From Chiloscyllium plagiosum (lineage: Eukaryota): 64,000 bases of DNA. The position numbers and the translations under genes were made by a program. Of this stretch, positions 7,063 to 52,480 are shown in pieces. The first letter of the stretch is position 1. Every line of letters starts with the position of its first letter. The stretch is taken from the NCBI RefSeq assembly GCF_004010195.1, contig NC_057759.1, positions 223,865-287,864 on the forward strand. The letters are read 5' to 3'. The notes under the pieces are model-generated. The model was given only the letters and a program-made list of their open reading frames with translations, was not told the DNA's origin and made no database searches.

Positions 7063-9774
7063 GTCCGGGTCCTATCCACTACGTTTCTGTGTTGACCTGT
7101 GGAGCAGCAACCACCCTGCATCACATATGCCGCCCTGAGGCACACAGATACAGGAGGGGATGAGGGACCAGGTTAAGAGAAAGAGGGAAATGCTTATGCC
7201 AGCCTTCCACGGACATCGTGAGACAGCACAGAAGAAAGCCTATGAAACTTTACAAATCGATCAATAACAATCCAACCTTCCAGCAATTAAGGAGGATAAG
7301 GAAGAGAAGGCAGAGCAATGTCATGTTTCTGCAACTAGGCTAGGCTTTGTCTCAATTCACTCAGCAAGATGTCAGTTCCAAAGATGGACTTGTCTTGAGA
7401 AACCATCTACATAGTTGTCTCTCCCACAACCCTCAGTGTATCAATTTATTCCCACTGTAGCACAATCTAACTGTTGATGGCAGAGGTTTGAAGTTTTATG
7501 CTGTTCATTCCTAACTTTAGCATCCATTTGATTTCCTGGCAAATGGGTCCAGGCAGACAAGCCAATGAATTGAATGTATTCTCTATCTTTTGTTGAAATT
7601 TTGGTGGAAATAACTTGTTTTCCAGCCCTATCTTCATTGCCCTTTAACTTCATCACTGTCAATATACATCCAACTCTCTTTTCATACCTCATATGGAACC
7701 GACCTCCACCATGATCCCTGACTGCACGATCCAAAATCCTAACAATTTTGAGTAAAGACATTTCTCCTCGTCTCACTCCTTGCCAGTGAGACGAGGAGAT
7801 TTATTCCCACACTCCTTGCCCTTTTACTGACAATCTTGAAATTGTGACCCCTAGTTAGTGGTAACAACTAGGGGTAGTGGTAACAAAATATGCTTCTTTC
7901 CCCTGGCAAAATTCTTCATAATTTTGAACACCTCCATAAGGTCCCCGTCTTAATCTTTTCTGCTCCAAGGTGAAGGAGTCTGATATCACTAATCCTTCCT
8001 TGTACGTAAAATCCTTCATTGCTGCTAATATTCTAGTAAATCTTCAATGAACAGTCTCCAGAGCTTAAAGTTCCTTCCTTAAATAAAGTGCCCAGAACTG
8101 ATCACGAATGTGATCTGACCAATGATTTCAGTCTCAGATTATTGTTACATTGTGTGTGCACATGCATGCACAGGAGCCTTTATCATGTGCTGCTGGGCAC
8201 TGTGTATCCTCAACTGTGATAAGTGATGTTAAGAGTCAATTCATATCTGCAAATAATTGAGGCCAAATTTTATTATTTTCCTTTCAGCATCCAGTGTCTG
8301 AGTGAGTTTGCTCTTGTGCTGCCACTCTGTATCTCAGTTCATGTCTCTTGTAGTGAATGGGAAACAGCCAAAGTTCTTTAATTGTTAGTGCCTGTAGGAA
8401 TCACGTGCAAGTGAAAATGTAACACACTGCAACAGAAAGGATTCTGTGCTGTTCTTCAGAGACAAGGTAGGAAACACAGTAGACCTTCTGTATCTTGTAT
8501 AGTGTGGAATCTAACAGAGTAATGATATAAAATGTCCATCTTCAGAATGCCATCAGTTTTTGTTTCAGTGCATATTGATTTACTTTTCTGAACACTGCTG
8601 AACTAACAATCAGTGTAAACTGAATCCATTTGCAACTAAGTGAAAGGGTGACAAATCATTCAATTGCATTGAAGCTGACTGACCATAATGTTCCTTGTAC
8701 ACAAAAGAAGATTGACTAATTCACTTCTATTTTCTGATGCAGACAAAACATTACCCTGCTCTGTCGTGTGATGATGCACCATTAACAGTACTCTTGGTTA
8801 CTCTATAGTAGGAAGGAGGAAAGGAAAAGGAGTTTTATTTTTTTGTCATGCAGTGCACAATATGTAAACTGCCAAATTCAATTTATCGAACAATCAACAC
8901 TGTTCAATTCTACTTGAAAATAAAACGAGCAGTTCTACAAACCTACTAATTTTGGCCTTTTCTTTCCCTTTCTCCACTGCTTTGAAGGGTGGTTGTTAGA
9001 TTCCACTGAGACATTTTGTAAATTGCAGACAGATTTCACGCTTTTTCTGAGACACATCCCAGGGAGGGGGAAGAGGAATACAGAGCTCTTTGTAGAAAAT
9101 TGCAACCAATTTTGAAAGAAATACATAATTATCTAAAAACAAAAAGAATTTCTGGTTGGACTGAACCAGACAAAACAAAGTCTTCTACTGCAATATGAAG
9201 AAGTGGAGAATAATGATGTGATAAAGATGGGGATGGCAGCTCCTCTGCTACCATGATACATTTATGCAATTGGATGCTGCATGCTCAGGATGAAAATTGT
9301 TAGCTGGTTGTTTCTGATCATGCAGACTCAAAAGTTTTCTAGGGCCTGATTCTGTACTGTAGGCCTCTCTGACCAGGGATTTGTGGGTATAAATCATTTT
9401 GAATGTAACATTTTGCAATGTCAATGGAACAGTATGGCTGTTAGACATTGTAAGGTGTGTCAGGATGGTGTATGCTTTTGAAAGTAAGTGTGTGTTTGTG
9501 TGTGTTGGGGGAGGGGGTGAGGGGAAATGTTTGGTTACGTACCTACACATTAATCATTCTATGTCAGACTTCGACATAGAATGTGCATTTGGAATTCATA
9601 TTATTTGCTGTGTCTATATACGTCACAAAAGATTACTTGTCATTCTCAGTTATTGATAGCTGAAATGTTTCCTTCAATAACAATTTGTACTCAATATCTA
9701 CTTTACACATGGTTGCTCAAAGTAATCACATCAGCTATTTGTTCACCTTAATTGTAACATTAAAACTATCGTTA

Positions 9775-10160
9775 ATAAATGCAGACAACATAAACAATGG
9801 TGGATTTGTGGGTAGTGGAGAAGCTTGTCAAAGAATACAGCGAGATATAGATATACTTGCAGATATGGGCAGAGAAATGAAACATTGAGTTTAATTTGGC
9901 AAAGTGTAACAGGCTGGACTTTGGGAGATCAAATGTTGAGGAAAGGTATACAGTAAATGGCTGGACACTGAACACCATTGACGTACAAAAGGATCTTGGG
10001 GTTCAAGTCTATTGCTCCCTGAAAGGGGCCATGTAAGTATTCAGGGTGGTATCTAAAAGGCGGCATGTGGCACGCTTGCCTTATTGGGCAGGGAATTGAG
10101 TACAAAAGTCAGGATGTCATATTGCAGCTTTATAAGACTTTGGTTAGGTTATGCTTAGTT
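9775..10160 (+). mobile_element. CR1 RT fragment
   Basis: ADNINNGG (degenerate FADDTKIGG) and IQRDID, followed by the CR1 post-RT region. Confidence 0.7.
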
Positions 10161-10314
10161 TTGTGACAAAAGATTAATTCTGTCCTTCTCAGTTACTGAT
10201 AGTGGAAATGTTTCCTTGAATATCTGTACTCACTATCTACTTCATAGATGGTTGTTCAAACTAACAGCATCGTCTATTTGTAATGTGAAAAGTATCCTTA
10301 CTAAAGTTCAGAAC

Positions 10315-11022
10315 ACATGAGGACAGCCTCAGTCGGGACATTGGGTTCCTGTCACACTACACACACACTTGAGCAGACCCTCTCTCATCCACATGCTCAT
10401 ACACACACATATACACCCTCTCAGGCTTATACACGATCACACTCATACACACACACACAAACGCACACATTCACATATGTACTCACACTCACATGCTCTC
10501 TCTCTCTCTTTCTCTCGCACACACAAGTCTATGGGGTGAATTTGCATTTGCAGAATTATATTTGCAGATACATTCTATTTTGCTCAAAAAGAGCACAATC
10601 TACAGGCAGTCAATCCATGCCATATTTTATATATTCCTACTTTGGCAATAAAACCACTCTGACTCAAGATTGGGATACAGACAGACTCTAACTTAACACC
10701 TTTAATACATTGTCTGAGCTGAGATGTCACCCTTTTTAAAATAAAACCTGAAGTCATCTTGAGAACATGACTTAAAAGTAGTTCTGGGATGTATATATTA
10801 ATGGACTAAAACTTGCAACCCATTCTAAAAGATGAAACACTGAACAGCAACCTAGATTTGTTCAATATATCCTTTCAGTTGCATGACACTGTAATCTTTT
10901 GCTATAAATTCTGTGTCTCATGATCCTGTTTCACAGCAACCTGATGAAGGAGCAGCACTCTGAAAGCTAGTACTTCCAAACGAACCTGCTGGACTATAAT
11001 CTGGTGTTGTGTGATTTTTCAG
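10315..11022 (+). mobile_element. Penelope-like element 3' end, family B
   Basis: Same sequence family as the reverse complement of 17528-18180 (CA-rich tract, hammerhead core, TGGTGTTGTGTGATTTTT end). Confidence 0.75.
10938..10972 (+). ncRNA. minimal type I hammerhead motif, family B (degenerate helix II)
   Basis: AC-CTGATGA-A-GGAGC-AGC-ACTCT-GAAAG-CTA-GT. Confidence 0.5.
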
Positions 11023-11845
11023 TTGTGGTCAGCACATTACAGGAAGAACGTGGAGGATTTAGAGAGGGTGCAGAAGAGGTTTGCCAGAATGTTGTCTAGA
11101 TTAGAGGGTGTGAGCTATAAAGAGAGGCTAGAAAAACCCGGGTAGTTTTCTTCTGGGCAGCAGAGGCTGAGGAAGGACACCACTTCGACTGGGATAACAC
11201 ATCCATCCTTGGAAAGGCCAAACATAGAGATACATGAGAATTCCTAGAAGCATAGTATTCCAATCGAAACTCCATCAACAAACACATTGACTTGGATCCC
11301 ATTTACCACGTCGGGAAAAAATGAACAGGAAATAACATCGCCAACCCAAGGAAACCTAAACACAAATAGAAAGCGGGCCTTACTACCAGTGCTTCATCCT
11401 GAGGCTCACTGATGATGTTATCTTGTATGGTGACAAAACGTCTAAAAACAAACCTTCCAGTTCAGCAAACAAACCTATATCCAGAAGTCTCTAAAAGTAA
11501 GACATGCATGGTTAAGTTTGATGGTCAGAATCTTTTTCCAAGAGTTGAAACGTCTAAAACTAAGAGGCATGCCTATAAGGTGAGGGGGGAAAAGTTCAAA
11601 GGAGACCTAAGGTGCAGTTTTTATTTAAAGTAGAGAGTGGTAGGAGTGGAATGCATTGTCGGGGTGGTGATAGAGGCAGATACGATACAGGTATTGAAGG
11701 GACTTTAAAATATGCAAATTAATATGCAAGAAATAGAGGGATATGGACCAAAGGCAGGCAGAAGGGATTAATTTCATTTGGCGTCATGTTCGACACAACT
11801 TCGTGGGCTGTAGGACCCTTTCCTGAGCTGCACCATTCAATGTTC
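11022..11845 (+). mobile_element. CR1 3' end with a nested PLE fragment
   Basis: LERVQKR-like start; LFPRVETSKTKRHAYKVRGEKFKGD after the insert. Confidence 0.7.
11178..11485 (+). mobile_element. Penelope-like element 3' fragment, family C
   Basis: Homologous to 61115-61430 (HHFDWDNTSILG..AK...REFLEA); decayed hammerhead at 11406-11445. Confidence 0.8.
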
Positions 11846-12928
11846 AGATTTAATGCAGTGTATATTTCAGCTGAGAATTCATTCACGTTGATTGGAACTG
11901 ATTTCATGCATTGAGAATATAGATAAAAAATATAAACTTCTATTTCCTTGGTGGTGTTTAACTCTTGGTTTGAACATCTCTCTCTGGAAATGGAGCTCCA
12001 ATGTGAACCTGACTCAATTTGTGAATGTGGAAAGGATGTTCTTCGCTGTGACAGCGGTAACATACCTGCTGTTTGTTCGAAGCAGCTGGTCACACTTGGC
12101 TCTGTATGGAGATAATATTACATAGTCTTGGTCCTTTGAGTACTTGCCTGGAGGAAGATAGAAGAGATACCTCATGTAAATCAACATCAGTTGTGATTGG
12201 CATCAATATAACATTCGGTTAATGATTAGAATTTTTTGTTCAACACCAGCAATTTAAACAGAACCACAGGTCTGATTCCACTCCTGCTCTGAGCTACTGC
12301 TTGTCCATTTTTTTCTTAAACTTGACATGCAGTTCCAGGGAATTTTTGTTTTTTAAAAAAATAGGGTCTCTGTCTGCACCACCAAATTAGGCAGATAATT
12401 CCAGATACCCACCACTCTCTGCATAACAAACAATTTTCCTCATATCATCCAATCCTACAGCCACGTAGCTTGAATCTGTGATTCCTGATTTTTGAACTCT
12501 CTGCCAAAGGAAATAGGTTGCTCCTGTCTATTCTAATGTCTCCCTCTCACTAGTTAGTTAATAATCACTCAACATCAGGTTATAGTTCAACAGGTTTATT
12601 TGGAAGTGCACGTTTTCAGAGTGCTGCTCCTTCATCAGGTAGCTCACTTTTTAGTTTTGGAGCTCACAGCTATCCTCTACACTATCCACTCTATGGCCAA
12701 TTTTTGTGTTGTCTGCAAATTTCACAAATTTGCCCACCACATTCAACTCCAAATCATTAATGTATGAAACAAACAGCAGAAGTCCCAACACTGAGCAATG
12801 CAGATCACCACTTAAAACAGCTTTCCATTCACAAGGGCAGCCATTGACCATTACCATTTCTTTCCTGTGACTGAGTCAACTTTGGGTCCAATTAAACACA
12901 TTAACCTGTTTCCCATGGGATTTTACTT

Positions 12929-14675
12929 AGAGTCATAGAGATGTACAGCATGGAAACAGACCCTTCGGTCCAACCCGTCCATGCCGACCAGATATCCCAA
13001 CCCAATCTAGTCCCACCTGCCAACAGCCGGCCCATATCCCTCCAAACCCTTCCTATTCATATACCCATCCAGATGCCTCTTAAATGTTGAAATTGTACCA
13101 GCCTCTACCACATCCTCTGGCAGCTCATTCCGTACACTTACCACCCTCTGCGTGAAAAGGTTGCCCCTTACGTCTCTTTCATATCTTTCCCCTCTCACCC
13201 TAAACCTATGCCCTCTAGTTCTGGACTCCCCGACCCCAGGGAAAAGACTTGGTCTATTTATCCTATCCATGCCCCTCAATTTTGTAAATCTCTATAAGGT
13301 CACCCCTCAGCCTCCGACGCTCCAGGGAAAACAGCCCCAGCCTGTTCAGCCTCTCCCTTTAGCTCAGATCCTCTAACCCTAGCAACATCCTTGTAAATCT
13401 TTTCTGAATCCTTTCAAGTTTCACAACATCTTTCTGATAGGAAGGAGACCAGAATTCCACACAATATTCCAACAGTGGCCTAACCAATGTCCTGTACAAC
13501 CGCAACATGACCTCCCAACTCCTGTACTCAATACTCTGACAATTAAAGGGAAGCATGCCCAAATGCCTTCTTCACTATCCTATCTAACTGCGACTCCACT
13601 TTCAAGGAGCTATGAACCTGCAGTCCAAGGTCTCTTAGTTCAGCAACACTCCCTAGGACCTTACCAGTAAATGTATAAGTCCTGATAAAATTTGCTTTCC
13701 CAAAATGCAGCACCTCGCATTTATCTGAATTAAACTCCATCTGCCACTTCTCAGCCCATTGGCCCATCTGGTCCAGATCCTGTTACCCTGTAATCGGAGG
13801 TAACCTTCTTCGCTGTCCACTACACCTCCAATTTTGGTGTCATCTGCAAACTTACTAACTGTACCTCTTATGCTCGCATCCAAATCATTTTATGTAAATG
13901 ACAAAAAGTAGAGGACCCAGCACCGATCCTTGTTGCACTCCAGTGTTCACAGGCCTCCAGTCTGAAAAACAACCCTCCACCACCACCCTCTGTCTTCTAC
14001 CTTTCAGCCAGTTCTGTATCCAAATGGCTAGTTCTCCCTGTATTCCGTGAGATCTAACCTTGCTAATCAGTCTCCCATGGGGAACCTTGTCGAACGCCTT
14101 ACTGAAGTCTATATAGATCACATCTACTGCTCTGCTCTCATCAATCTTCTTTGTTACTTCTTTAAAAAACTCAATCAAGTTTGAGAGGCATGATTTCCCA
14201 CGCACAAAGCCATGTTGACTATCCTGAATCAGTCCTTGCCTTTCCAAATACACGGACATCCTGTCTCTCAGGATTCTCTCCAACAACTTGTCCACCACCG
14301 AGGTCAGGCTCACCTGTCTGTAGTTCCCTGGCTAGTCTTTACCACGCTTCTTAAACAGTGGCACTACGTTTGCCAACCTCCAGTCTTCCGGCACCTCACC
14401 TGTGACTATCGATGATACAAATGTCTCAGCAAGAGGCCTAGCAATCACTTCTCTAGCTTCCCACAGAGTTCTTGTATACACCTGATCGGGTCCTGGGGAT
14501 TCATCCACCTTTAACTGTTTCAAGACATCCAGCACTTCCTCCTCTGTAATCTGGACATTTTGCAAGATGTCACCATCTATTTCCCTACAGTCTATATCTT
14601 CCATATCCTTTTCCACAGTAAATACTGATGCAAAGTATTCATTTAGTATCTCTCCCATTTTCTGTGGCTCCACAC
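12929..14675 (-). mobile_element. 5'-truncated CR1 LINE including the RT domain
   Basis: [47 protein letters not shown]; frameshifted. An older CR1 piece lies at about 12330-12920. Confidence 0.92.
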
Positions 14676-14692
14676 TTTTTGGACCAGTCTAT

Positions 14693-16720
14693 TGTGATGA
14701 TGCTGCTCCTTTAACAAGCTTGTAAAAGACACAGGCTCAAAAAAGTCTGTGTTGATGAGTTTTAGGGCCATATTGATTATAGCTAACAGATAATTCCTTA
14801 GGCAAAAGGCTTCCACATTTTTAAAAAGAACACTTGTACAATGAAAGGGAAGTGGCCCAGTTTTCCCAGCTCAGCTTTTCTCTGGTTTGATTTGGTTTTT
14901 GGCTGTCTGGCTATTGACTGAAAGCAGTCAGGCAATTGAAAAAGCTGTTGAACCCGAAGCAGCAAGTCCATGATTGTACCATTCTTCTGACATCTCTCCT
15001 GTAAGACACTGTTTGATTTTAGCTTTTGTGGCAAGGGGTGTTTATGGGGACTGTTGTAAATGTTGGGAACATCATCATTAAGTTGGTATAATCCGTTGAG
15101 TTTTCAGATTTGTTGTTATTCAGTATTCTGTTCTCTTTTGTTTGTGTATCACTGCATCCCTCCTAGAATATCTTTGTTACACCCGCTTAAAATAAACTAG
15201 CAAAGTTAGAGTCTGGGTTACTTTCTTGAAATGTTTGGAGGGGATCTGGCCTTTTCCAATAACAGATTTGGGGCTGTTTGAAGAATTTATTCTATAGTTC
15301 CGATTTGGGATTCAGGTTGCTGGACTCTAAGGCAGCGAATGGTAAGTATTAATGTCTTTTTTTCCAGGAGTTGAATTCAATTGGTTTGAACAGCGCTTGG
15401 ACAAAGTGAGGATTGCAGATGATGGAGATCAGTGACGAGTGTGGGGTGCTGGAAAGGCATAGCAGGTCACGTAGAATCTGAGGAGTAGGAGAATCGTCAT
15501 TTTAGGTGTAAGCTCTTCATCAGGAAACAGTGCTTGGGATAGCAATGGCTCTTTGAATCATAAAGAGTTTTCTGGGGGTGGAAGGAGTGACTTCAGATTT
15601 TTGCAAAAGGTGATTAATGCCAAGTTGCTGGAATTAGCAAACAAACTGGAGCTTGACCTGCCTCCTTGCACGTGGAAAAAAGGCGATAGTTACATTAATA
15701 GCTCAACATTTACATTTACTGCAAACACCATCAGACTCTTTAGAGGTGGCTAACAGTCAATTGAAAATTAAGCAATTCGAGTTAGAGGCAAAAGTCAAGG
15801 AAACGGCAATAGAAAAAAACAGTTTGAATTACTATTAAAAGCAGAAGAGAGGAAGAAGAGAGAAAAACTGAGAGCGAGGAAATGAAGAAAGAGGGAGTTT
15901 GAACTTTAGTAACTGGCACTTAGACAGGAGTTCAAAACTTCACTTCCTGATGTAATGAGAACTATGTGGAAGAGCAGAGAGTTAAAACAGCAAGACTGGC
16001 ATCAGAAATGGCTGATGATTGAGTTGATCAATAAATCAAATTTGGGCTGCCAAAATCAATTTCAATCCATGAGGAATAATAATTGTGGATAAGAGAAATT
16101 CTCACGTGGAAAGGGAAAAGTAGACCTCGGTGAAGATCATATGGATGATTTACCATCGTAAAAAGGAAACCCTTGAAAGGGAAAGAGAAGTGAAAAAGCT
16201 CTGGTGTTCTCACTGCAATAAAGTAGGCCACTTGAAATCAGTGTTGATGGGTTAGGAAAAGCACTGAGAAGCCAAAATGTAGGAAAACAGGATAAGCCAG
16301 TGAATTTTGTTGGAGTGGTAACCGAGAGTACTGTGGAGACTAGAAACCTGCACTAGAATGTACAAGCTGGTCGGAGGTTGTTTATGGAGGAAGGGCCAGA
16401 TCTTCTTAAACCATACACCGTGAAGGTAAAGTTTACTCACATAAGTCAGGAACAACTGGTAAAGAGGGAGCAAGGATCCTCTCAATCTGTGATGCTAAAA
16501 AGTGAGGATATATGTACCTCTGAAGGACTATTGCCAAAAAAGGTACGAGTAACGGGAATTCACATTGAAATTAGAAATGCTCAATTGTAAGAAATGAGGT
16601 TAGAGTGAAGAGGGGAGAAGTCATAGTAGGAGTACTGGACAAACTTTCAGCTCCAGGAATACAATTTGTCCTTGCTATGATGTTGCTGATTCACTGGTAG
16701 GAGTGCTGCCTACTGTGGTT
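14693..16720 (+). mobile_element. degenerate Ty3/Gypsy LTR retrotransposon (5' LTR plus gag/protease relic)
   Basis: TG...CA bounded segment 14693-15264 followed by a weak tRNA-Pro-like PBS (TGGGGCTG); gag-like KLLELANKLELDL..AIVTLIAQHLHL; zinc-knuckle relic CSHCNKVGHLKSV near 16206-16245; many stops and frameshifts. Confidence 0.65.
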
Positions 16721-17159
16721 GAAAAACAAATGGAAATTGCCCATAGTGTTTGGTGCATTAGTCAGAGAGAGATGGGTCTGGGTGGGTTGCTCTTCGGAGG
16801 GTTGGTGTGGACTTGTTGGGCTGAAGGGCATGTTTCCACACTGTAGGGAATCTAATCTAAAAAAAAATCTAATCTATATCCTGGTGTTGTGTGATTTTTA
16901 ACTTCATACCAATTGAGTGAGATCCAGAAACTGAGCAACAACTGCCCAGCACCATGAATGGGAATACTCAACCACCAGGATGCTTACACAGGTCAATATC
17001 CAACTCCCCAACCGCCTGTTGGAAAGAGGGAAAACGGCGGTATTTCTAATGTTTTTACCAAGACCCCATTGTATGTCCTTTTACAAGAGTATCACATTCC
17101 TACAGTTGGTCCACACAACCTTAAGAAACAGCGGGAAACAGAATGAAATTAAAACAGGG

Positions 17160-17513
17160 CCCACAGCAGCTTCTTCCCCCCTCTGCCTCCCTCAGCAGGC
17201 CCACACACAGCCCGAGAAAGGCCTCTCTCTTCCCCCCAGCCCGCTCACTCCAAGTTCCGGGACCAGTTCCTGCTCCGCTCGGCCTCTTACAAACAGCCCC
17301 CGGTTCTCCCTGAACTCACCCCGAATCAATCCCGGTCTCCCATCCCGATGTGCTGCTGGAAGGAGCCTGCTGTTCCCTCGCTTCCCTGGGCGCTGATCTC
17401 TCCATTGCGGTCTGTTTCAAACAAACCTCTTGCACTCACTGAGTAAATGCTCCTCAATGGCAGCGCTGGGGGAGGGACTCACGCATGCGCTCCTCTGCTC
17501 AGGAACAGTCAGC
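17160..17513 (-). promoter_or_regulatory. GC-rich promoter and first exon of candidate gene copy A
   Basis: NRF1-type site ACGCATGCGC at 17481-17490, ETS core CCGGAA, donor GG|GTGAGT at 17319; near-identical inverted copy at 45039-45416. Confidence 0.55.
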
Positions 17514-17527
17514 TTGAGCGAGAAAAG

Positions 17528-18680
17528 TTTAAAATCACACAACAGGTTGAATTGGAAGCACACTAGCTTTCAGAGCGTCGCTCCTTCATCAGGTGATTGT
17601 GGAAGCTTCAATCCTAACACAGAATTTATAGCAAAAATTTACAGTGTGATGTAACTGAAATTATACATTGATCTTTCATGTGTAAATCACAAAACTTTTT
17701 TTTTAAGTTGCATTCTCAGGTTAGCTGTTAACAATGATGATAGCTAGACAATATGTTGAAGGTATTCGCCCCCTGTGTTCTCTGTCTATGCCATGATGTT
17801 TAGATTGATTCTAATCTAAAAAGTGAGATCACAGAGTTTTACATGAATTCATGTAGTTTTTGAGCAAAGTACAATGTAATCCTGCAAGTACATATTCAGC
17901 CCACAAAATGTGTGTGTGCGTGTGGGTCTTTCTGGGTTCGGGGTTGTGAGTGTGAGAAAGCATATGTGTGTGTAGTGAGCGCAGAGTGTCTTAAGTCTGT
18001 GAGGGGGTGCGTGTGGGAGTGTGTGTGTCTGTAAGGATGTGTGTGGGTGTCTGTGTGCGCGTCTGTGTATATGTGTTTCCGTGTATGTGTGTATAGGAGT
18101 GCCTGTGTGTGTGTCGGAGTATCTGTGTGTGTGTATAGTACAATGGTGTTCCCCTGTAATGTGACATGAACCCAAGGTGCCGGTTGAGGCCCTCCCTATG
18201 GGTACCGAACTTAGCGATCAGCCTCTGCTCGACCACTTTTCACTGCTGCCTGTCCCGAAGTCCGCCTTGGAGGATAGTCACCCGAAGGTCCGAGGTCGAA
18301 TGTCCTGGACCACTGAAGTGTTCCCCAAATGGGAGGGAAAACTCCTGTCTGTTGATTGTTGTGTGGTGCCCATTCACCCGTTGTCATAGCCTTTGCTCGG
18401 TTTCCTCAATGTACCATGCCTCCGGGCATCCTTGCCTGCAACGTTTAAGATCGACAACGTTGGCTGAGTCACATGAGTACCTGCCATGTACTAGGTGGGA
18501 GGTGTCCCCACGCGTAATGGTGGTATCTATGTCCAAACTCTGACACATCTTGCAGCGCCTAACCGCAGCCCAGGGTTGTATGGAGTTGTCCTGAGAGCCT
18601 GGCAGCTTGCTACGAACAACGATCTGTTTGAGGTTTGGCGGTTGTTTAAAGGCAAGTAGTGGAGGTATGGGGAAGGCGTT
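17528..18680 (-). mobile_element. 5'-truncated Penelope-like element, family B, with GIY-YIG endonuclease relic
   Basis: PPLLAFKQPPNLKQIVVRS...CKMC...YSCDSANVVDLKRCRQGCPEAWYIEETEQRL and EQRLIAKFGTHREGLNR; 3' UTR carries a hammerhead core. Confidence 0.88.
17561..17595 (-). ncRNA. minimal type I hammerhead motif, family B
   Basis: Reverse complement CAC-CTGATGA-A-GGAGC-GAC-GCTCT-GAAAG-CTA-GTG. Confidence 0.65.
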
Positions 18681-18689
18681 AGGGAGAAA

Positions 18690-18895: not shown

Positions 18896-19216
<321 letters not shown>

Positions 19217-19819: not shown

Positions 19820-20539
<720 letters not shown>

Positions 20540-21547: not shown

Positions 21548-21909
<362 letters not shown>

Positions 21910-22830: not shown

Positions 22831-22885
22831 GCAAATATTTGATGGATCAATCCAAGGGTGACCAGCTGCTTTTCACAATCAGCAG
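22831..22885 (+). other. copy of the 82-nt exon with an in-frame 27-nt deletion
   Basis: CTTTCTCCAG|GCAAATAT...CAGCAG|GTATGT; downstream intron homologous to the other copies. Confidence 0.55.
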
Positions 22886-25259
22886 GTATGTTACCTCTGA
22901 CAGAGTGGAGGATGTCCTTTCCACTGTCTGAGTGGATTGAGTCAGACACACATTGAGCTCAAATTCCAGAAGTACACATTCAATCCAAGAGTTAAACACA
23001 ACTGACGATATATAAATCTATATTATTTCACCCTGTTCTGAATGCATACCGCCTCGTGACAGTAAATTCCATTATTCAAAGCCAATTATCATTCAGAAGA
23101 TTAGAAGCAGGTTAGACTGTATGCTTGTAATAAATATGCATTTGAGCTGCATTAAATCCATATGTAGAATATGCATTTTTAAAGTTATAATTAAGAATCA
23201 ATTATGCTGTTACATTGTTATAACAAGTGTATATGAAGTTGATATTGAGGGCAGATATAGAAGCAAAGTTGGATATTGAGTAACTGAGCAGGACAAGTTT
23301 ATTCTTTTGATAAATAGGTGTTCTGTACAAAGACAATAATCAAACAATGTAAATTCCAACTGAACCTCTTGGGTCAAGCCTAATCTACAGAGGATGCTTC
23401 CAGAGAGATGCTTAAAGCCCATTCACACACGTGCATACACATCTGTCTCTGTCTATCTGTCTTTCAGCCTGGTGTTGACGAAAATACACTTTATCCACAC
23501 TCCCATTCTGGTTGAGAGCCTGAGTAATGCAGAAGCATTTCCTGAATTTTTAAATGTATGAAGCACTGATTGATAAGACATTAAACCCACCTCATAAAGT
23601 GCATCAGATCTGCAGGACTGGAAACACAAAGAGACATACAGACAATGTCAGTGTGATATAGACCAGTACCACTCTTCAAAGTGATACAGATTGGCAGCAC
23701 AACAGAAAACTCACTCTCACTCAGCCAGTTAATAGTTAAAGGGAGAAAAATACAATTTAGGCCAACAAGTACTTCCAAATATGGACAGTCATCAATTGAC
23801 TGACCAAATTATTAATTGCTTCAGAGGATGTTAGTGTGAGATGTTACATTACTGCAGTGCCCAGCAGCAACTGACAAAGGCACACACAAAATGTAAAAAT
23901 AAAATTGAGATTAAATACAGTAAAATTCAAATTCTTGGCAAAGATAAGTATTGAACCAATATTAATCCCTCAATCACACAGGTTTAGCGAATATTGAACT
24001 GGTTTATCCTACACCCTGACTGAAAAAAAACACAACTGAACATAGAAAGAGAATGACATCCATATACTCGACTCGTCACTGCACACCAAGCAAAACTGAT
24101 ACTATAGGTATTCAAAGGCTGATAACTGCAGAACTAATCTCAAATTGGCATTTATACTGAGACACTGGCAGTGAGTGGATGAGGTTCAGAATCCTAAACA
24201 GTTATTGGAAACTAGTATGAAAAACAGATGAAAATAGAATGTCCCAGCACAGACACAACAGGCTGAATGGCCATAACAATTCTGTGAATAAGTCATAAAT
24301 CACAAAATGCATAAGAGTTTAAGGCCCAATCACAACACCCTAAAAGCTGCTATCACAGATTGAATCACAGTCACAGAGAACTTGTTTTTTCTAATTCAGT
24401 CATGGAATGGGGGCATCCGTGGCTAGGCCAACATTTGTTGCCCATCCCCAACTACCCATGCAGTACTTTGGAGTCAACCACATTGATGTGTGTTTGCAGT
24501 AACATGTAGGCCAGACAAGGTAAGGTTGGCAGTTTCCTTCCTTCAAGCACATTAGTGAACCAGATGAGTTTTTCTGGCAATCAACAATAGATTCATGGAC
24601 ATCATTAGATTCTTAGAATATTATTGGCTGTCAGAGAATTGACAACTTTGATATATAAGAGTTGAACATGACTGGAACTCATTGAGAACTTCTCTCTCAC
24701 AGTCACACAGCAGAAACTGGCATATATAGATCAGTTCCTAAATTCACACATGGACACAGCAGAAATTGACATATATATATCAAGTCCTAAACTCTCGCAT
24801 GGACACAACTGAAACTGACAGTCATCGATTGATATCTGCTCTCACAATATTCACATTGCAGAAACTGAAAGGGAGAGAACAATAATCATGCACACACACA
24901 TGACAGGTACAGGTTGATAACTAGACTAACAGATTTGCATAGCAAAACCTGACAGGTACAGTATGATAAATGAATTTACATATTTATAAACACGAAGTTG
25001 GTAGACACAAATTAGTAACTGCACTCTCAGATGCACAGAGCAGAATCTGACAGGGACAGGTTGGTTAATAACTCACACATGCAGGTGGTAGTAAATTTCG
25101 GAGGAAGATTGATAACTACACTCATATTCACAAAGCAGAAACTGACAGGAATAGATTGATTATGCTCCCAATTTCAAATCACCTAAACTAACGTGTATAC
25201 TTTGATAACAAACACTCACATATTCACAGAGAAGAAACTGACAGGCAGAGATTGATAAC

Positions 25260-25885
25260 AAAACAAAGATTAGTGGAAAATTCACAGGACTGGCAGCATT
25301 TCAGGCAGAGTGACCGGTCCTCAGGACTGATAGTGGCAAGGAAAATGCGCAAAATGTGCTCAACTCTGTGTTGAGGAAACTGAACGCAGAGTGGGTGTCC
25401 ACTTTGCAGAACACCTACATTCTATCCAGACAAAAAGACCCTGAGCTTCCAGTTGCCTGTCACTTCAACACATCACTCTGTTCCCTGGCCAACATTTCTG
25501 TCTCAGGCTCGCTACAGTGCTCTAGTGAAGCTCAGTGCACACTTGAAGAACAGCATCTCATTTTCTGCTTGGGAACTCTACAGCCTTCTGGACTCAGTAT
25601 TGAGTTCTTCAACTTTAGGGCTTCAGCTCTCCCATGTTATTACCCAAAACTCCACACATCCAGTCTTGTTAACATATAGTCTGCTGTTATACACCACCAA
25701 TTGTGAGCCACTAACAGACCCTATTAATAGGCTATTCACCCTCTTAGTCTGACAGTTATCCGCTCCTTTCTCTGTTCTACTGTTCTTCTCTTTCTTTGGA
25801 CTCTATCTCCATCTATCTTTTACTTGTCACCCTTCCACCCACCCTATCTTCTGTATAAAAACTAATATTTTCCTAGCTACAACCA
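25260..25885 (+). mobile_element. Penelope-like element 3' fragment
   Basis: PELPVACHFN...LEEQHLIFCLGTLQPSGLSIEFFNFR, typical of a PLE GIY-YIG C-terminus. Confidence 0.75.
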
Positions 25886-25974
25886 GAAAATACAGAATTT
25901 TGAATACACCACCAAGCAACTCAAGAACAGCTTCCCTGCTGTTATCAGACTTTTGAATGTACTGTTCATATTTT

Positions 25975-26185
25975 AAGGTGAAAGTGGGTACTGCAGATGC
26001 TGGAGATTAGAGTCACAATTAGAGTAGTGCTGGAAAAGCACAGCAGGATAGGCAGAATCCAAGGAGCAGAAAAATTGATGTTTTGGGCATTCCTGATGAA
26101 AGGCTTTTGTCCGAAACGTCAATGTTTCTGCTCCTCGGATGCTGCCTGACCTGCTGTGCTTTCCCAGCACCACTCTAATCTCGTT
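25975..26185. mobile_element. foldback element, family A, nested in a Rex/Babar-like LINE 3' end (about 25895-26355)
   Basis: Inverted arms; ATTC-CTGATGA-AAGGCTTTTGTCC-GAAACGTC at 26089-26120; host reads KNSFPAVIRLLN. Confidence 0.7.
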
Positions 26186-27689
26186 CAAATTTTAATGTTA
26201 ATCTCTCTCTCTTTGCAGCTTTAATACTGTATTACAGATTCTGCTCTATTACCCTGATGCATTTTGTATGATATTATCTGCCTGTAAAGCACACAAAACA
26301 ATACTTTCCATTGTTTTCAGTGCATGTGAGAATAATAAATCAGATCAAATGAAATGGATAACTACACTCACATATTCAAACAGCAGAATCTGAGAGGCAC
26401 GGGTTCATAACTACAGTCACACAAAGATGAATAAATACATTCAAACACTGACATTACAGAGCCTGAGAGGGAAAGATTGATAATTAAACTCTCACATTCG
26501 CAAAGCTGAAACTGATAGCGACAGGTGAAAACTCAGCTCACACATTCACATCGTAAAAACTGGAAGGATTGACAATTACACAAACAAAGTCACCAAGCAG
26601 AAACTGACAGCTACAGATTGACATCTATATTTGTGTATTCACACAGCAGAGTCAGAAAGATACAGATTGACAGTTACAATCACTTTGACAAAGAAGAAAT
26701 TGACAGGTAGAGAATGATAACTGTACTCCCACATTCACATCACTGAAACTGATAGCTACAGTTTGATTAATACACCCACATTCACAGAGCAGAAGCTGAT
26801 GGGGACTGATCAATAACTGTATTCACATCTTGACAGGGAAGAAACTGACATGGACAGATTGGTATCTACACTGTCACATTGACATAGTAGAAACAGATTG
26901 ACAATGACACTCTGGTGTCAAATAGCAAAACCTGAATGATACTGTTTGATATTGATATAGATATAGATATAGATATAGAATATCGATATAGAATAAACTT
27001 ACAGGTAGAGATCAATATCTACATTCTCACAGAATAAACTGATGGGAACAAATTGATAACTGCATTTAATATTCATACAGCGGAAACTGACAGGTAGAGA
27101 CTAATATCAAAACTCGCATTCTCATAGCTGAGACTGACAGGTTCAGGTTGATAACTACACTCTCAGATACACAGCAGAAACTGTTCGGGAAAGCTTGGTA
27201 AGTAACACACATATTCGCTGGGCAGAAACTGACAGGTATATATTGATAACTAAACTTGCAAATCCACATCAGAGAAACACATAGGGACTGATTCTATTTA
27301 TTGAAAATATATGACATGTATTTATCAACCAGTCCCTGTAGTTTCCTCCATGTGGATACATGAGTTCAGTTATCAATCTGCACTGTGGTTTATGCTATGT
27401 GAATGTGTGAGTGTAGTTATCAGTCTTTCCCTATTTGTCTCTGTGATTAGAAAATGTAAATATATTTACCAGAGAGTGACAGGGACAGATTCATAACTGC
27501 ATTCACTTGCATATTTGCATAGATTATATGGATTGATAATTACAGTTTGATAATTACACTCAGATATTCACAGAGCAGCATTTAACAGGTACATGTTGAT
27601 AATTGTCTTCACACACTTACTGAGCAGGAACTGACAGCTATGGATAGATAAGGAAACCTTCATATCCAGACACTTCCTAACATCAGATT

Positions 27690-28185
27690 ATCCCATTTGT
27701 CGAGGTGTTGTTCGTATCTGTTTCTCAGTAAATTGGTAAAGTTTCTTTGATACAATCACTAAAGAGCAGCTCAGGCCAAGAGGAGAATCAGTCCTGTGGT
27801 CCTGTTGGAATTGCTGTCTTGAAGGAAAAACAGCCTAATGGTTATTAAATTATTACATTGTCTGTAAATCAACATTAAGTCAATGTCTCTTCTGTGTTCC
27901 TCCAGACAATTACTTGAAGGACCAAGACAGTGTTATATGTCCTTGGCACGAAGCCAAGTGTGATCAGTTTCTTCTAACAAACAGCAGTTATGTTACTTCA
28001 GTCAGACTGAAGAACATCTTTTCCATAGTCACAGAGCAGATTGAATTAGACACACACTGACTCAATTTCCAGAAAGAAATTTTCAAATCAAGAGTCAACT
28101 ACCTCAGACGAATTACAATTTTTTTCTCTCTCTCCATTCTTTATGTAAATCACCCCATTTGCCAATAATTGTTATAATTCACAGC
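27690..28185 (+). pseudogene. degenerate copy of candidate gene exons 2-3
   Basis: 82-nt exon 27906-27987 (NYLKDQDSVICPWHEAKCDQFLLTNS) with donor GT>TT; upstream region matches 52020-52150. Confidence 0.55.
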
Positions 28186-38151: not shown

Positions 38152-38771
38152 ATGAGTGACGGCACAGCCGCCGAAACGGCTCCTCCAGCCTCCGCTCCCA
38201 CCAAAGCTAAGGCTCCCAGGAAAAAAACACCCGGTCCCGGGTTGGGAGAGCTGATTCTGAAGGCTGTCGGGGATATGAAGGATCGCAAAGGGACGTCTCT
38301 GTCCGCTATAAAGATGGCGCTGGAGAGAAGCGGGATCGATGTGGAAAAGCGAAAGGTACAGATTAAGATGAGGTGCCTGGCGAACGGCTCCCTTGTTCTG
38401 GTCAAGGGCCAGGGCGTCTCCGGCTCCTTCAAACTCCCTAAGAATCCAGTCAAGGCAAAAGCGGGAAAGAAGGTGGGAACATCAGCAGACGCCAAGAAAC
38501 CGGCCGTGAAGAAATCACCAGCATGAAGGCGACAGCAAAGAAATCCCAGGCCAAGAAAGCGACAGCCAAGAAATCCCCAGCCAAAAAAGCGAGCGGCAAG
38601 AAGACGGCACCGCCAAAGAAAGCGGTGAGCAAAGCAGCGACAAAGAAACGGACTCCCGTGAAGAAGGTGAAAAAGACCAAGGGCCCGAAAGCCTCCAAAC
38701 CCCTCAGCAAACCGGCTAAAAGCAAGGCCAAGCCCAAAGCAAAAGTGACCAAGACAGCAGCAAAAAAATGA
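38152..38771 (+). pseudogene. H1: histone H1 pseudogene
   Basis: MSDGTAAETAPPA..., globular domain GELILKAV..RKGTSLSAIK..KGQGVSGSFKL with an apparent short deletion in helix 3; frameshift gives TGA at 38524-38526 while the K/A/P tail continues in another frame; only the 3' arm of the stem-loop remains; H1 box AAACACA at 37997-38003. Confidence 0.9.
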
Positions 38772-39729: not shown

Positions 39730-40146
<417 letters not shown>

Positions 40147-45038: not shown

Positions 45039-47270
45039 GCTGACTGTCCCTGCCCAGAGGAGCGCATGCGTGAGTCCCTCCCCCAGCGCTGCCATTGAGG
45101 AGCATTGACTCAGTGAGTGCAAGAGGTTTGTTTGAAACAGACCGCAATGGAGAGATCACCGCCCAGGGAAGCGAGGGAACAGCAGGCTCCTTCCAGCAGC
45201 ACATCGGGATGGGAGCCTGGGACACAGAGGGGGCTCCGAGACCGGGATTGATTCGGGGTGAGTTCAGGGAGAACCGGGGGCTGTTTGTAAGAGGCCGAGC
45301 GGAGCAGGAACTGGTCCCGGAACTTGGAGTGAGCGGGCTGGGGGGAAGAGAGAGGCCTTTCTCGGGCTGTGTGTGGGCCTGCTGAGGGAGGCAGAGCGGG
45401 AAGAAGCTGCTGTGGGACATTCTTGTGGTTATTAATCCCCTAAACACTGATGGGAATTCTGTTTCACGCTGTCTGTTGATATCGGACAGTGAATAATGGA
45501 AGCACGACGACGATTTTGTGACAATCCTATTAAGGACACGTATTGGAGTGAACAGATTTGAAGTTTCGAGTAAAACATTAGACATAGCGTCTCTTGTTCT
45601 TTCCTTCAACATTTAATGTATCGTCAGCTTGCTATTGATATATGTCAGCATTGCAGCTGCTTCAGGAATCCCCATTCATGGAGGTGAACAGATGTTAGTT
45701 CTGGATCTTACCCAATTGTCACAAAGTTGCAAATAAAAGAAACGGAGACCGGGAGCAACTGAGGGAAAGAGTGGAATCGAAACCTGATTATTAACTGACT
45801 GTCACACTGATCAGTTTAATCTTGCTTAACTTGGCTTATGTTGATTTACAGCTGAAAAGTCTTCTGTCTTCTGCCAAGGAAATATTTATCTGACGAAGAC
45901 AATGTCATATTTCCTCAGTATAACGCCAAGTGAGACCAGCTGCTTCTAACAAACAGCAGGTATGTTACCACTGCCAAAGCAGAGAATATCCTTTCCACAG
46001 GTACGGAGCAGATTGGATCAGACTTAGTTTGAGCTCAATTTCCAGGGATATATCCAAACAAGCAAACAGTCAGACTCAACTGCGGAAAGACAAGTTTCTT
46101 TTTTTCTCTGTATTCTCCATAGACATCTTCCCGGTTTCAATTAATATGATTCATAGGCCATGAACATTCACAGCATGTTTAAAGCTGACTGGTTGCCTAA
46201 AGTAGGCAGTTAGTGTCTAAGTCAAGTTGACATTTTAAAAGGGCATTTTAAATGTCACAAACCAGATAAGCAATTATATCATGCTTTTATATAGTTTCAG
46301 CAGCCATTTTTGACAAGTAGTGAATAATTACTGAGCACACACAAACACACATGTACGCAAAGGTCCTGACTGATTCAGACTGAGTCCCCAATACACTCCC
46401 CATATCAACACACAAGATACAGAGACTAACAGCGATGTACACACATTTACTCTGTAGGAAACAGAAATGAATATATACAAATGTTTACACAAAAACAAGC
46501 AACTAATCCCATTCAACCAGCATTCCATTTCAATGAGTGTGTCATGGCAGCAGAGGAGCTGTCAACCCCACCTTGGTCTCAACATCATTCTCAACATATT
46601 CACCTTGCAGGGATAGAAATTAAATTTTCACACTGCCCAGTATTAATTTATTTTTATTAAAAAATGTGTAACTCGGTCTCCAAATTCACTTTAATCATCT
46701 ACAAAGAATCCCAAATGTCCCACCCTGTGAAATATTACAAAAAAAGCAAGAAAATAGTGTCATATCATCAATTTAACAATATAATCAAATAATCACCCTT
46801 TAATTCAACAAAGGAATTTAGTCAAATCTTGTAATTTGAAAATTCTCATTCTTTTTGCAGGAAGAGTTCAACCATGTTCAATAAATTTGCCTGAATGATT
46901 TAAATCTTTTCCACTGTATGACAAAAATACAAGTCTTTTCACTTTCCTCATCGCCACCACAGAGCATCAGGAGAGTACTGCGAATGGCTTGCACCATCAC
47001 TCCACAGAACAGGATTACGTAATACTCACAATAGAATAATGAAGTGAACTAGCCAATTCTCTTTCCTGTAGCAGGAACATTGTGGTCAGTCGGCTACAAT
47101 ACACTTTATTTGTTCGTTCCCCTCTCCTTTCAACACTAACAAAGGAATGTAACGCCTATCCATTTCTCAGCATTATTCACAAAAGTATCTAGGAAAAACT
47201 GATGACATCCTGAAGAACAGCCCATGGTATCATTCTTCCCAGTTCGAGTTTGCACTACAGGAGTTGGAAA
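45039..47270 (+). pseudogene. candidate spliced gene, copy B (compact, inactivated)
   Basis: NRF1 site 45062-45071; donor at 45258; exon-2 homolog about 45620-45718 with early TAG; exon 45878-45959 with TGA; exon 46963-47013 with donor GT>AT; colinear with copy A. Confidence 0.55.
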
Positions 47271-47319
47271 ACCCTTTAATTTTGCATTACACAATCCATG
47301 ACACAAAGCAAATGCACTA

Positions 47320-50300
47320 AGCAGAAACTGACAGGTACAGATCGATAAGTGCACTCACACATTCACATAGCTGAAATTGACAGGCATAGATTAATATCTA
47401 AATTCAGAGTCACAAAGCAGTATCTGGCATATACAGTTTGATGACTGTACTTACATTGACAGAGCAGTCAGATTGGTAAATATATTCTGATGTTCACATT
47501 GTAGAAAAGTGCATGTACAGATTGCTAACTGCACGCTGTAACACATATAGCAGAAATTGACAAGGAGAAATTGAGAACGATATTTACATATCAGAACTGG
47601 CAGGTACAAATTGGTAAGCACATTCACATATTCACAATACAGAAGCTGATAGGGTAAGATTGATAAATGCACTCACACATTCACATGGCAGACACTGAGA
47701 GTTACAGATTAATAACTGCACACTCAAATACACAGAGCTGAAACTGATAAGAACAAATTAGTAAATACACTCTGACATTCACGGAGAAAGTTTGATACCA
47801 AATGTATCATATCCACGAAGCAGAAACTGACAGGAACAGATCAACAATAACACTCAGTTTCATATTGCATAAACTGACAAGTAAATTTTTGATAACTAAT
47901 CTCACAGTTTCACACAGCAGAATTTGACAAGTATAGATCAATAACAATACTCAGTTTGACAAGCAAAAATGACAACTACACTCTAACATTCATCCCATAT
48001 TCACATGGCAGAAACAGTTACAGCTTGATATCTACTCTCACCCATTCACATTGCAGAAACTGACTGGGACAGATTGATGATGACACTCACACATTCATAT
48101 GACAGAAATTAACAGAGGTTCAGCTCAATAACTAAAATCACATATAGATGTAGGAGAAGCTGACAGCGAGAGACTGATAATTATACTCTCATTCACATTG
48201 CAGAAACTGAGATTGATAACTGCACCCTTATATTCACACAGAAACTGACAGATATAGATTTGATAACCACAGTCACACATTCATATTGCAATAACTGATA
48301 AGAGATAGATTGACCTTCCCTATGAGATATTTTTTAAAAAGTAAGAAAACAATATAATTTAGTCAAATTATCAATATAGCTTCCTACGCTATCATAGGAT
48401 ATACTCAATCTGGTCCGAGAGTTTGAAACAACATTTTTTTTTTAACATCTCTAGCACCCCGTCTGTTGGCATGTGGGCTGTTTTCAAGATATCAATATTT
48501 ATTTCCCCAAGTTTCCTAGCCTCCACTCTTATGTCTCCAGGCATAGAACAATAACTGTACTCACACATTTATATTACAAAGAATGGCAGATTCAGATTGA
48601 TAAGTGCATTCATACATTATCAAATCAGAAACTGATGGGGAGAGATTAATAACTAATCAATTTTATATTTAATAACTCATCTAGCCGAGACTTTCAGGGA
48701 GAGTCTTTTAGTTAGAATTAGAATCCATACAGTTTTGAAACAGGACCTTCAGCCTGGCAAGTCCACACCGACCCTCTGAAGATTATCACAACCAGAACCA
48801 CTCCCTTATCACTCTACATTTACCCCTGACTAATGCACCGAACCCATTCATCCCTGAACACTATGGGCAATTTAGCATGGCCAATTCACCTAACCTCTTC
48901 TTTGGACTGTGGGAGGAAACCGGGGCACTCAAAGGAAACTCACACAGACACGGGTAGAATGTGCAAACTCCACATAGACAGTCGCCCGAGGCTGAAATCG
49001 AATCCAGGTTCCTGGTGCTGTGAGGCAACTGAGCCACTGTGTCGTATAATGTGCCACATTATACAAGAATATTCACACCGCAGAAACTAACTGGTGCAAA
49101 TTGATCACAACACTCGTATATTCACAGAACAGAACATGACAGTTACAGATTGATAACTACATTTTCATATTCACACTACAGAAAATGACAGGTATGATTT
49201 AATGAATATAGTTGCATTTTTGCAAGCAGAAACATTTAGAGACATATTAATTACTCCATTCATATATTCACATATCTGAAACTGTTAGGTACAGATCAAA
49301 AACTAAACTCGTCAATTGACATAGCAGAAACTGGGACACAGATTGATACTTGCACTCATACATTCAGATAGCAGACACTGACAGGCACAGATGGCTAACT
49401 ACACTCACATACCGGAAACTGACAAGATCTTTCCCATAGCATAACCAAACAGGTAAAGATTTATAACTACAATTTCATGATCACAGAGGGAAAAACACAT
49501 TGTCATGTACAGTTTGATAACGATACTCAAAAATATCTGATTAGAATCTCTCAGGTCCATATTGGGAACTACACTCTCTCATTCACCTTGTAGAAATTGA
49601 CAGATGCAGACTGTTAACTACACTGACACATTCACAGCACAAAATGACAGGAACAGGTGGACAACTACCCTCATTCATTTATGAAGCAGAAACTAACAGG
49701 TACAGATGATAACCACCACTTACATATTCACAGGGCAGACTGTTACAGTCATAAATTGATAACTGGACTCACACATTTACATTACAGAAACTGACATACA
49801 TTTTGATAAAGGCATTTGGACATTACCAAACCAGAAACTTCCAGCTAAATGTTCATATCACCACTCTCACATACAGACAGCAGAAACTCACAGGGATAGG
49901 TTGGGAAATACACATACACATTCACATAGTGGAAACTGATATGTCCATATTGATGACTATATTTGGATGTTCACAAAGCAAAGACAGATTGATAATTGCA
50001 CCATATTCACAGAAGAGAATCTGACAGGTATTTCCATATGCACATAGTTGAAACTGACAGGTTTACAAATTGATAACCTCATTCACATATTAACAACACA
50101 GATATTGACAAGGAATGGTTGATATATGCACTCACATATTCACCAAAAAGAAACTGACTGGTACAGATTGATAACTAAACTCACATGTTGAAATAACAGG
50201 AACTGAAAGGTACAGACTGATAGCAACACTCTCATTCTCATAGCTCATACTGACAGATATTGGTTGATATGTACACTCTCATTCACATAGCAAAAACTGG

Positions 50301-51959: not shown

Positions 51960-52480
51960 CTGATTCCCAGCCCTGCTTGCATTGGATAGCCCCATTCATG
52001 GAGCTGTACAGTTATTGGTTAGTTTCTGGACCTCACTCAATTGGTATTGAATTAACAAAAAGAAACGTCACCAGACATGGAGCAAGAGTAGAATCAGACA
52101 TGTAGTTCTGTTTGGATTCCTGTCTTTAAAAACAATATCCTAATGATTATTAACAGTTAAAGATCAGTTAAAGATGGTCAAACTTGGCTGATTGTGATTT
52201 AGAGAGATTTCTGTTCTGTCTTCCTCCAGGCAAATACTGGAAGGGCCAAGACAATGTAATATTCCCTCGGTACGAAGCCAAATGTAATCAGCTGCTTCTA
52301 ACATACAGCAGGTATGTTACCATTGTCAGAGCAATGAACATCCTTTCCACAGTCAGAGCAGATTGGATTGAGCTCACTTTGAGAGTGAGAGATGTTCAAA
52401 CAACAGAGAAAATATGTTTGTTTTTTTTTCTCTCACAAATGCACATGACTCCAGTTTGAACAAATGTCACCATTCACAGC
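51960..52480 (+). other. candidate gene copy with open exons 2-3
   Basis: ATG 51998 to G|GTATTG 52043, joined to CCTCCAG|52230-52311|GTATGT, gives MELYSYWLVSGPHSIGKYWKGQDNVIFPRYEAKCNQLLLTYS. Confidence 0.5.

Follow-up and report, generated by a model that had tools for sequence, protein, structure and literature searches.

A family of spliced, probably non-coding units among the histone genes of the carpet shark Chiloscyllium plagiosum

A stretch of 64,000 nt from Chiloscyllium plagiosum (contig NC_057759.1, positions 223,865 to 287,864; hereafter 'the window', in whose coordinates positions are given) carries on its minus strand, between 8660 and 17513, a series of exon-like segments that an earlier note assembled into a hidden gene. 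We call this unit copy A. The question is whether copy A encodes the 69-residue (or 59-residue) micropeptide that the note derived from it, or whether the exons serve as a long non-coding RNA (lncRNA) or an untranslated leader, two options that the note had also left open. We saw that copy A belongs to a family of related spliced units, at least 100 in number, located among histone genes. With a probability of about 0.72 we regard the family as multi-copy spliced, likely non-coding units amplified with the histone genes, not as a micropeptide gene; as part of the same reading, the 69-codon frame would be a chance product of a 1-nt deletion in copy A.

The window is situated on scaffold C50 (8.08 Mb), which holds the histone cluster of the 3.56-Gb genome. 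A check of the sequence found the exons, splice sites and 69/59-codon frame of copy A where they had been placed:

17160..17513, minus strand: homogenised GC-rich module comprising an NRF1-like site, exon 1, its donor and the first 158 nt of intron 1 (61% GC; CpG observed/expected 0.51)
17320..17513, minus strand: exon 1, with a putative 5′-end; donor after 17320 (intron start 17319)
16910..17015, minus strand: exon-2-like segment of 106 nt, flanked by AG/GT, with the proposed ATG at 16955
12066..12147, minus strand: 82-nt exon, flanked by AG/GT, the chief internal exon of the family (splice sites in paralogs, RNA peak, joint to exon 1)
8755..8802, minus strand: 48-nt exon (exon 4), flanked by AG/GT, seldom used (paralog alignment, RNA depth)
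8660..8693, minus strand: possible last exon (exon 5), acceptor before 8693

The last intron of copy A has only 61 nt; the open reading frame (ORF) has 69 codons if this intron is spliced and 59 codons if it is retained. Exon 1, which is devoid of 25 nt present in most copies, contains three ATGs (17486, 17405 in a strong context and 17343), all upstream of the one at 16955; the ATG at 17405 opens a 73-codon frame overlapping the proposed ORF. A palindrome at 17490-17482 is what we take to be an NRF1 site, and YY1- and ETS-like motifs in the module are presumed in the same manner.

The earlier note saw two copies of the gene, A and a compact copy B. Copy B is real, at 45039-47106; the count of two is far too low, since the window alone contains five 82-nt-type exons. 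Comparison of the window with itself revealed, besides the 82-nt exon of copy A, four further exons of this type and a second exon-2-like piece, distributed as follows:

45039..47106, plus strand: copy B, with the same module and diverged downstream exons (self-comparison of the window)
22831..22885, plus strand: 55-nt variant of the 82-nt exon, unaccompanied by exon 1 (window comparison)
27906..27987, plus strand: 82-nt-type exon with a dead donor (window comparison)
51991..52311, plus strand: second pair of exon-2-like piece and 82-nt exon, 3′ of copy B (window comparison)

A first look at the whole genome gave 59-233 candidates per exon (exon 1, 129; exon 2, 59; 82-nt exon, 233; exons 4-5, 82), 40 candidates for each exon being scored. 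A 26-nt motif spanning the first donor had 100 genome matches (85 exact, 15 with one mismatch; control, 0), of which 68 were on C50, 26 on small contigs and 6 on other large scaffolds. A 464-kb region surrounding the window, 34 kb of which are N, contains 12 first exons alternating with genes for H1, H2A, H2B, H3 and H4. In the subfamily to which copy A belongs, the unit runs from H4 through exon 1 (head-to-head with it) and exon 2 to a first 82-nt-type exon; next come a second exon-2-like piece, the main 82-nt exon, and exons 4 and 5. Two of these parts, the first 82-nt-type exon and the second exon-2-like piece, have been lost from copy A; the adjacency of its exons 2 and 3 is therefore derived.

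We considered a transposable element as the source of the family; its distribution does not support this: dispersal throughout the genome with unrelated flanks was not seen, as 68 of 100 matches fall on one scaffold and the downstream flanks are homologous. All 61 exon-1 ends examined had a donor, so that no processed genomic copy was seen. Near-identical modules also occur beside runs of N on unrelated scaffolds (L068, L070 and L071, on contig C101069 and scaffolds C39 and C18); these are possibly artefacts of assembly gap filling.

Is the family transcribed? The raw single-cell run X19, the sole run recorded as RNA, of which ∼2% was read, was mapped to copy A at 93% likeness. Its signal had the orientation expected of minus-strand RNA in exon 1 (18.4 versus 0.73) and in the 82-nt exon (2.76 versus 0.2); a slight signal was seen at 8094-8440 (1.34 versus 0.05). 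A joint with canonical ends, 17319>12146, connects exon 1 straight to the 82-nt exon and skips the ATG exon. It was present in three of the four runs mapped on copy A: X1 (one contig, depth 16), X6 (one contig, depth 41) and X19 (one read), with none in X2. Neither of the two junctions by which the proposed ORF would include its ATG exon, 17320>17015 and 16910>12147, was among the 15 joints listed for copy A, out of a total swollen by repeat reads that includes 198 more.

For a cleaner view we turn to L161, a repeat-poor paralog ∼92% identical to copy A, mapped at 85% likeness. In the bin of the 82-nt exon the summed contig depth was 398, 1308 and 1156 in X1, X2 and X6, compared with 1-77 in neighbouring bins; the exon-4 bin had 7, 17 and 23. 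The 48-nt exon is rarely used in the family. As for the third proposed junction, 12066>8802, its counterpart on L161 occurs in one X2 contig (depth 7.4), which links exon 4 to the 82-nt exon; copy A itself is not singled out by it. No joint crossing the 61-nt intron was among those listed for L161, and a 302-nt X6 contig passes through this intron unspliced. Run X20, with 0 reads on L161, was counted as no test.

In one X6 contig two 82-nt exons follow each other in tandem: at L161:2987-3068 (G000:C50 ∼328490-328570) the end of the exon is joined to its own start; tandem paralogous exons are the simplest account, a back-splice being possible. The sequence that continues past the 82-nt exon in RNA (agreement 0.61) had no convincing match in the DNA searched. 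Exon 1 and the 82-nt exon amount to up to ∼276 nt in copy A, given the putative ends, and no pile-up of read starts or ends was listed. For the family as a whole, minus-strand RNA contains exon 1 and the 82-nt exon, spliced directly to each other. Two features of a spliced lncRNA were found at this level: a stranded transcript with canonical splicing, and no conserved coding frame or known domain.

Protein databases contain traces of the same exons. A profile of the 82-nt exon matched 17 proteins among 1.84 billion representatives, two of them repeat-like chance matches. The others that were named (P0001-P0003 and 8 of 10 looked up; the naming leaves out four of the 17) are uncharacterised models from C. 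plagiosum, C. punctatum and Stegostoma tigrinum, the last from three loci on one contig. The 82-nt exon is shared by LOC122544537 and LOC122544534 of C. plagiosum, by XP_072422816.1 and several chiPu models of C. punctatum, three C. punctatum models also holding exon 1, and by LOC132207171, LOC132206964 and LOC132206966 of S. tigrinum. The RefSeq model XP_072422816.1 starts within exon 1 and continues directly with 82-nt-type exons, as the RNA joint does. These models differ from the unit in being annotated as uncharacterised proteins, and none matches the proposed 69-residue product; their tails are mutually unrelated, several matching repeats that recur through the region. As the Stegostoma models contain the 82-nt exon, the family would predate the split of Chiloscyllium and Stegostoma.

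That the exons of copy A encode the 69- or 59-residue micropeptide was suggested by its splice sites, all canonical, and by compatible phases. The earlier note took the ORF to be preserved across copies; we saw no such preservation. In copy B the equivalent exon has a stop and a dead acceptor. The paralog sets consist of the 29 best-scoring of 40 listed matches per exon, and lean towards copy A. The 82-nt exon had AG in 29 of 29 paralogs and GT or GC in 29 of 29. In the ATG exon both splice sites were kept in 8 of 29 (9 if one alignment gap is forgiven) and the donor in 13 of the 28 paralogs covering it; the ATG itself, a point for the micropeptide, was kept in 27 of 29. Exon 4 is 49 nt long in 24 of 29 paralogs, with a stop in the proposed frame in 25 of 29; copy A reads through because of a private 1-nt deletion, on which the last third of its frame depends. 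The exon-4 frame was shared by only two of the 29, identical to each other, by way of a different deletion.

Among whole units only one of seven kept all splice sites and the frame (7 of 10 units were used, three having a part missing or rearranged; an eighth row was dropped, a different paralogous exon having been picked). A higher count of intact sites, 24 of 27, was set aside as biased by the manner of exon picking. The ratio of non-synonymous to synonymous substitution rates (dN/dS) computed from distinct variants among close paralogs was ∼1.00 for the 82-nt exon and ∼1.12 for exon 2; there were 59 non-synonymous and three stop variants against 21 synonymous ones (expected synonymous share 0.26; combined p 0.61). 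A Pfam search with six peptides gave a single match with E 0.22, and an Atlas search gave no usable match, which tells neither absence nor novelty. Added to this, the joint seen in RNA skips the ATG exon and three ATGs lie upstream of the proposed start. The low-depth joint to exon 4 found in one run does speak for the micropeptide; even so, we consider it highly improbable that copy A makes this product. As to the interpretation offered earlier, its lncRNA option fits best and the spliced unit is real at the family level, while the micropeptide did not hold.

Several observations weigh against the reading as non-coding units, or limit it. That runs X1, X2 and X6 are RNA is a guess, and expression is poorly measured by summed contig depth. 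A search for runs containing the unit listed none on record as RNA, its 14 best being RNA by guess. The reads and contigs speak for the family, none being assignable to copy A alone; with 198 joints on copy A and 15 on L161 beyond those listed, inclusion of the ATG exon is possible, and one X2 contig does connect the 82-nt exon with exon 4. Most modules do not adjoin an H4 gene. Finally, in nine representatives of deep subfamilies the ratio of non-synonymous to synonymous variation (pN/pS) was 0.73 in the proposed frame of the 82-nt exon, and 1.41 and 1.05 in the other frames, with 14, 17 and 20 variants by codon position, which are small numbers. Two length variants of the exon, 55 and 76 nt long, preserve the frame, which is also open in a Stegostoma model. 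Faint or past coding constraint may have acted on the 82-nt exon.

The best coding rival is accordingly a different peptide, a family-wide short one starting at the last ATG of exon 1. Typical copies have this ATG 49 nt upstream of the donor, and it shares the reading frame that stays open in the 82-nt exon; ATG and open frame were both present in 32 of 38 exon-1 copies. In copy A the 25-nt deletion has removed the start, which would make this copy a dead member. Such a peptide agrees with the joint seen and with the start of XP_072422816.1, with the ratio of 0.73 between subfamilies, and with the same frame being open in three Stegostoma models; since gene finders pick the longest frame, the frame choice of models is not independent evidence. 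However, the exon-1 frame showed no synonymous excess (three synonymous, seven non-synonymous; p 0.54), nor did the 82-nt exon of close paralogs. The 82-nt exon is also asymmetric (phase 1 to 2), so that its tandem use, as in X6, shifts the frame; the tails differ in every model and the start is the third ATG. We regard a peptide of this kind as unlikely.

One could also speculate that the unit is a decayed remnant of an ancestral coding gene within the histone repeat, with only the promoter still active. That a single frame of the 82-nt exon is open, and that pN/pS is weakly below 1 in deep comparisons, would fit such a history. On the other hand, no parent protein came to light: the profile matches are the shark models of the family itself plus the two chance ones. 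Such an origin seems quite improbable.

A further possibility is that the exons are shared 5′-untranslated exons of coding genes located downstream, for example C2H2 zinc-finger genes. A module at C50:457300 (minus strand) is 18 kb upstream of a same-strand zinc-finger ORF (438464-439054) that lacks a CpG island in its vicinity, the module being its nearest same-strand CpG-rich promoter motif. Yet in the 464 kb there are only 4 zinc-finger pieces for 12 modules, and zinc-finger genes are concentrated on C44 and C45; downstream of copy A there is no long non-repeat ORF or coding exon, and in none of the protein models is the 82-nt exon accompanied by a known domain. As a general account this is improbable; in a few copies the exons may have such a role. 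The zinc-finger ORF is itself one of a pair, G000:C50:438464-439054 and 374278-374868 (both minus strand), 95% identical, 64 kb apart, one of them with a stop.

We return to the reading as amplified non-coding units and to the introns of copy A. The earlier note argued from large transposon insertions that all fall in introns. Exons occupy 5.2% of the span, so that random insertions would miss them with p 0.81-0.72 for 4-6 insertions (0.65-0.9 over several insertions), and of the large insertions a single one is specific to copy A; hence the placement of transposons is uninformative. Apart from that insertion (CR1, ∼12929-14674) and a small piece of a short interspersed element (SINE), the intron content is common to 7-9 of 10 paralogous units and therefore was inherited, not inserted independently. 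The insertion is:

12929..14674, minus strand: CR1-type long interspersed element, the only large insertion private to copy A (RVT_1 match; paralog comparison)

Of the transposon labels given before, CR1 was confirmed in this way by RVT_1; 'Gypsy', assigned to 14680-16730, had no Pfam match in the three frames tested.

Which part of the unit, then, is kept? The module of promoter, exon 1 and donor (∼350-380 nt) has 95-99% identity among copies whose other parts have 70-80%, and its upstream surroundings are of several kinds. All of 12 copies taken consecutively and without selection have an intact donor, and the first 158 nt of intron 1 have a median pairwise identity of 98.7% (minimum 97.5%); in the same copies the median is 95% for exon 1, 71.5% for the distal intron and 80% for the next exon. 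By comparison, H4 genes differ by 7-9% at third codon positions and H3 genes by 2-4% (three copies each). Because near-identity extends to every position of the intron stretch, gene conversion would be an easier explanation than selection alone; the uniformity of the module is likely due to gene conversion, to selection on promoter and donor, or to both. An artefact of assembly polishing was rejected as the cause: RNA-type contigs match the module at 97-100%, and the C. punctatum models carry the same exon 1. The fold of the module is not unusual (z 0.26), and a search of the window with Rfam gave only two histone stem-loops, with no match in the module; neither a known structured RNA nor a snoRNA or miRNA host is indicated by these results.

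Part of the family is arranged with H4. There are 31 genome matches to H4, 19 of them on C50; by comparison of coordinates, 15 of these 19 have a head-to-head module within ∼4 kb. In four undisturbed copies the distance from the NRF1-like site to the H4 ATG is 261-263 nt, within the ∼1 kb taken as the limit for a divergent lncRNA of the H4 promoter; many other copies have no H4 partner. Copy A is ∼1.4 kb from the start of its H4, owing to an insertion:

17514..18685, strand not assigned: repeat insertion between the module and the H4 promoter (comparison with undisturbed copies), by resemblance presumably SINE-like and Penelope-like
18905..19216, plus strand: intact histone H4 gene, head-to-head with copy A

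At two other loci, L079 and L137, a deletion has taken the promoter and 5′-end of H4, and the truncated coding sequence directly borders the module or the intron part of it.

Taken together, we propose that the GC-rich promoter-like module, likely read by RNA polymerase II, would start an RNA in which the invariant donor of exon 1 is joined to an 82-nt-type exon further downstream, and which would probably run on into variable, often repeat-derived exons. The whole unit would have been multiplied by segmental duplication along with the histone genes, which would explain the shared intron content. In the subfamily of copy A the unit stands head-to-head with H4. Copy A is a derived copy: 25 nt of its exon 1 and an 82-nt-type exon were lost, whereas CR1 and the insertion before H4 were added. 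Since only the module stays near-identical, the promoter or the act of transcription likely matters, not a peptide.

One could go further and see in the module, as uniform as histone coding sequences in its 100 or more copies and conserved in carpet sharks, a non-coding 'extra member' of the shark histone repeat which helps to organise or time the histone locus via its spliced RNAs or as an always-on promoter. We consider this rather unlikely; should RNA or promoter indeed act there, vertebrate histone clusters would have gained a component of a new kind. Irrespective of that, this is apparently an undescribed lncRNA family, which gene finders mislabel as dozens of unrelated 'uncharacterised proteins'. 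Being more uniform than the third codon positions of H4, the module also offers a clean non-coding test of gene conversion versus selection in histone clusters.

In the literature searched (mostly papers open to non-subscribers, main texts and not supplements) we found no description of the unit family in histone clusters or of its models. In a stingray the histone cluster co-occurs with tRNA loci, and the accessible portion of that main text does not use the word lncRNA (bioRxiv 10.1101/2025.06.08.657570). LUATs, according to the accessible part of their description, are divergent upstream antisense lncRNAs that arise from promoters of coding genes and are tied to regulator and developmental genes (Lepoivre et al. 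2013, PMC3882496). As far as that account goes, the likeness is in a long RNA transcribed head-to-head from a GC-rich region beside the promoter of a coding gene, the shark unit being 261-263 nt from the H4 ATG; unlike LUATs, the shark unit has at least 100 copies, most with no H4 partner, and its own homogenised first-exon module. In Drosophila, GA repeats in the bidirectional H3-H4 promoter direct formation of the histone locus body (PMC5588930, accessible part). The likeness here is that of a non-coding element which is repeated in a histone cluster and linked with the region of the H4 promoter. The GA repeats are a short cis motif between two histone genes, as far as described there, whereas the shark unit is a spliced transcription unit.

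Of the window's six histone genes, four appear to be damaged, the H4 at 18905 and an H3 at 39736 being intact:

20042-20323, plus strand: H3, damaged, stop at codon 94
21550-21885, minus strand: H2A, damaged, 5′ part missing
38152-38526, plus strand: H1, damaged, ends after 124 codons
62792-63160, plus strand: H2B, damaged, internal deletion of ∼80 nt

A degenerate AT-rich satellite of 49 nt is present in the window in 50 copies at ≥60% (24660-27640, 47300-51650, and scattered to 61550); the same satellite recurs downstream of many units across the cluster.

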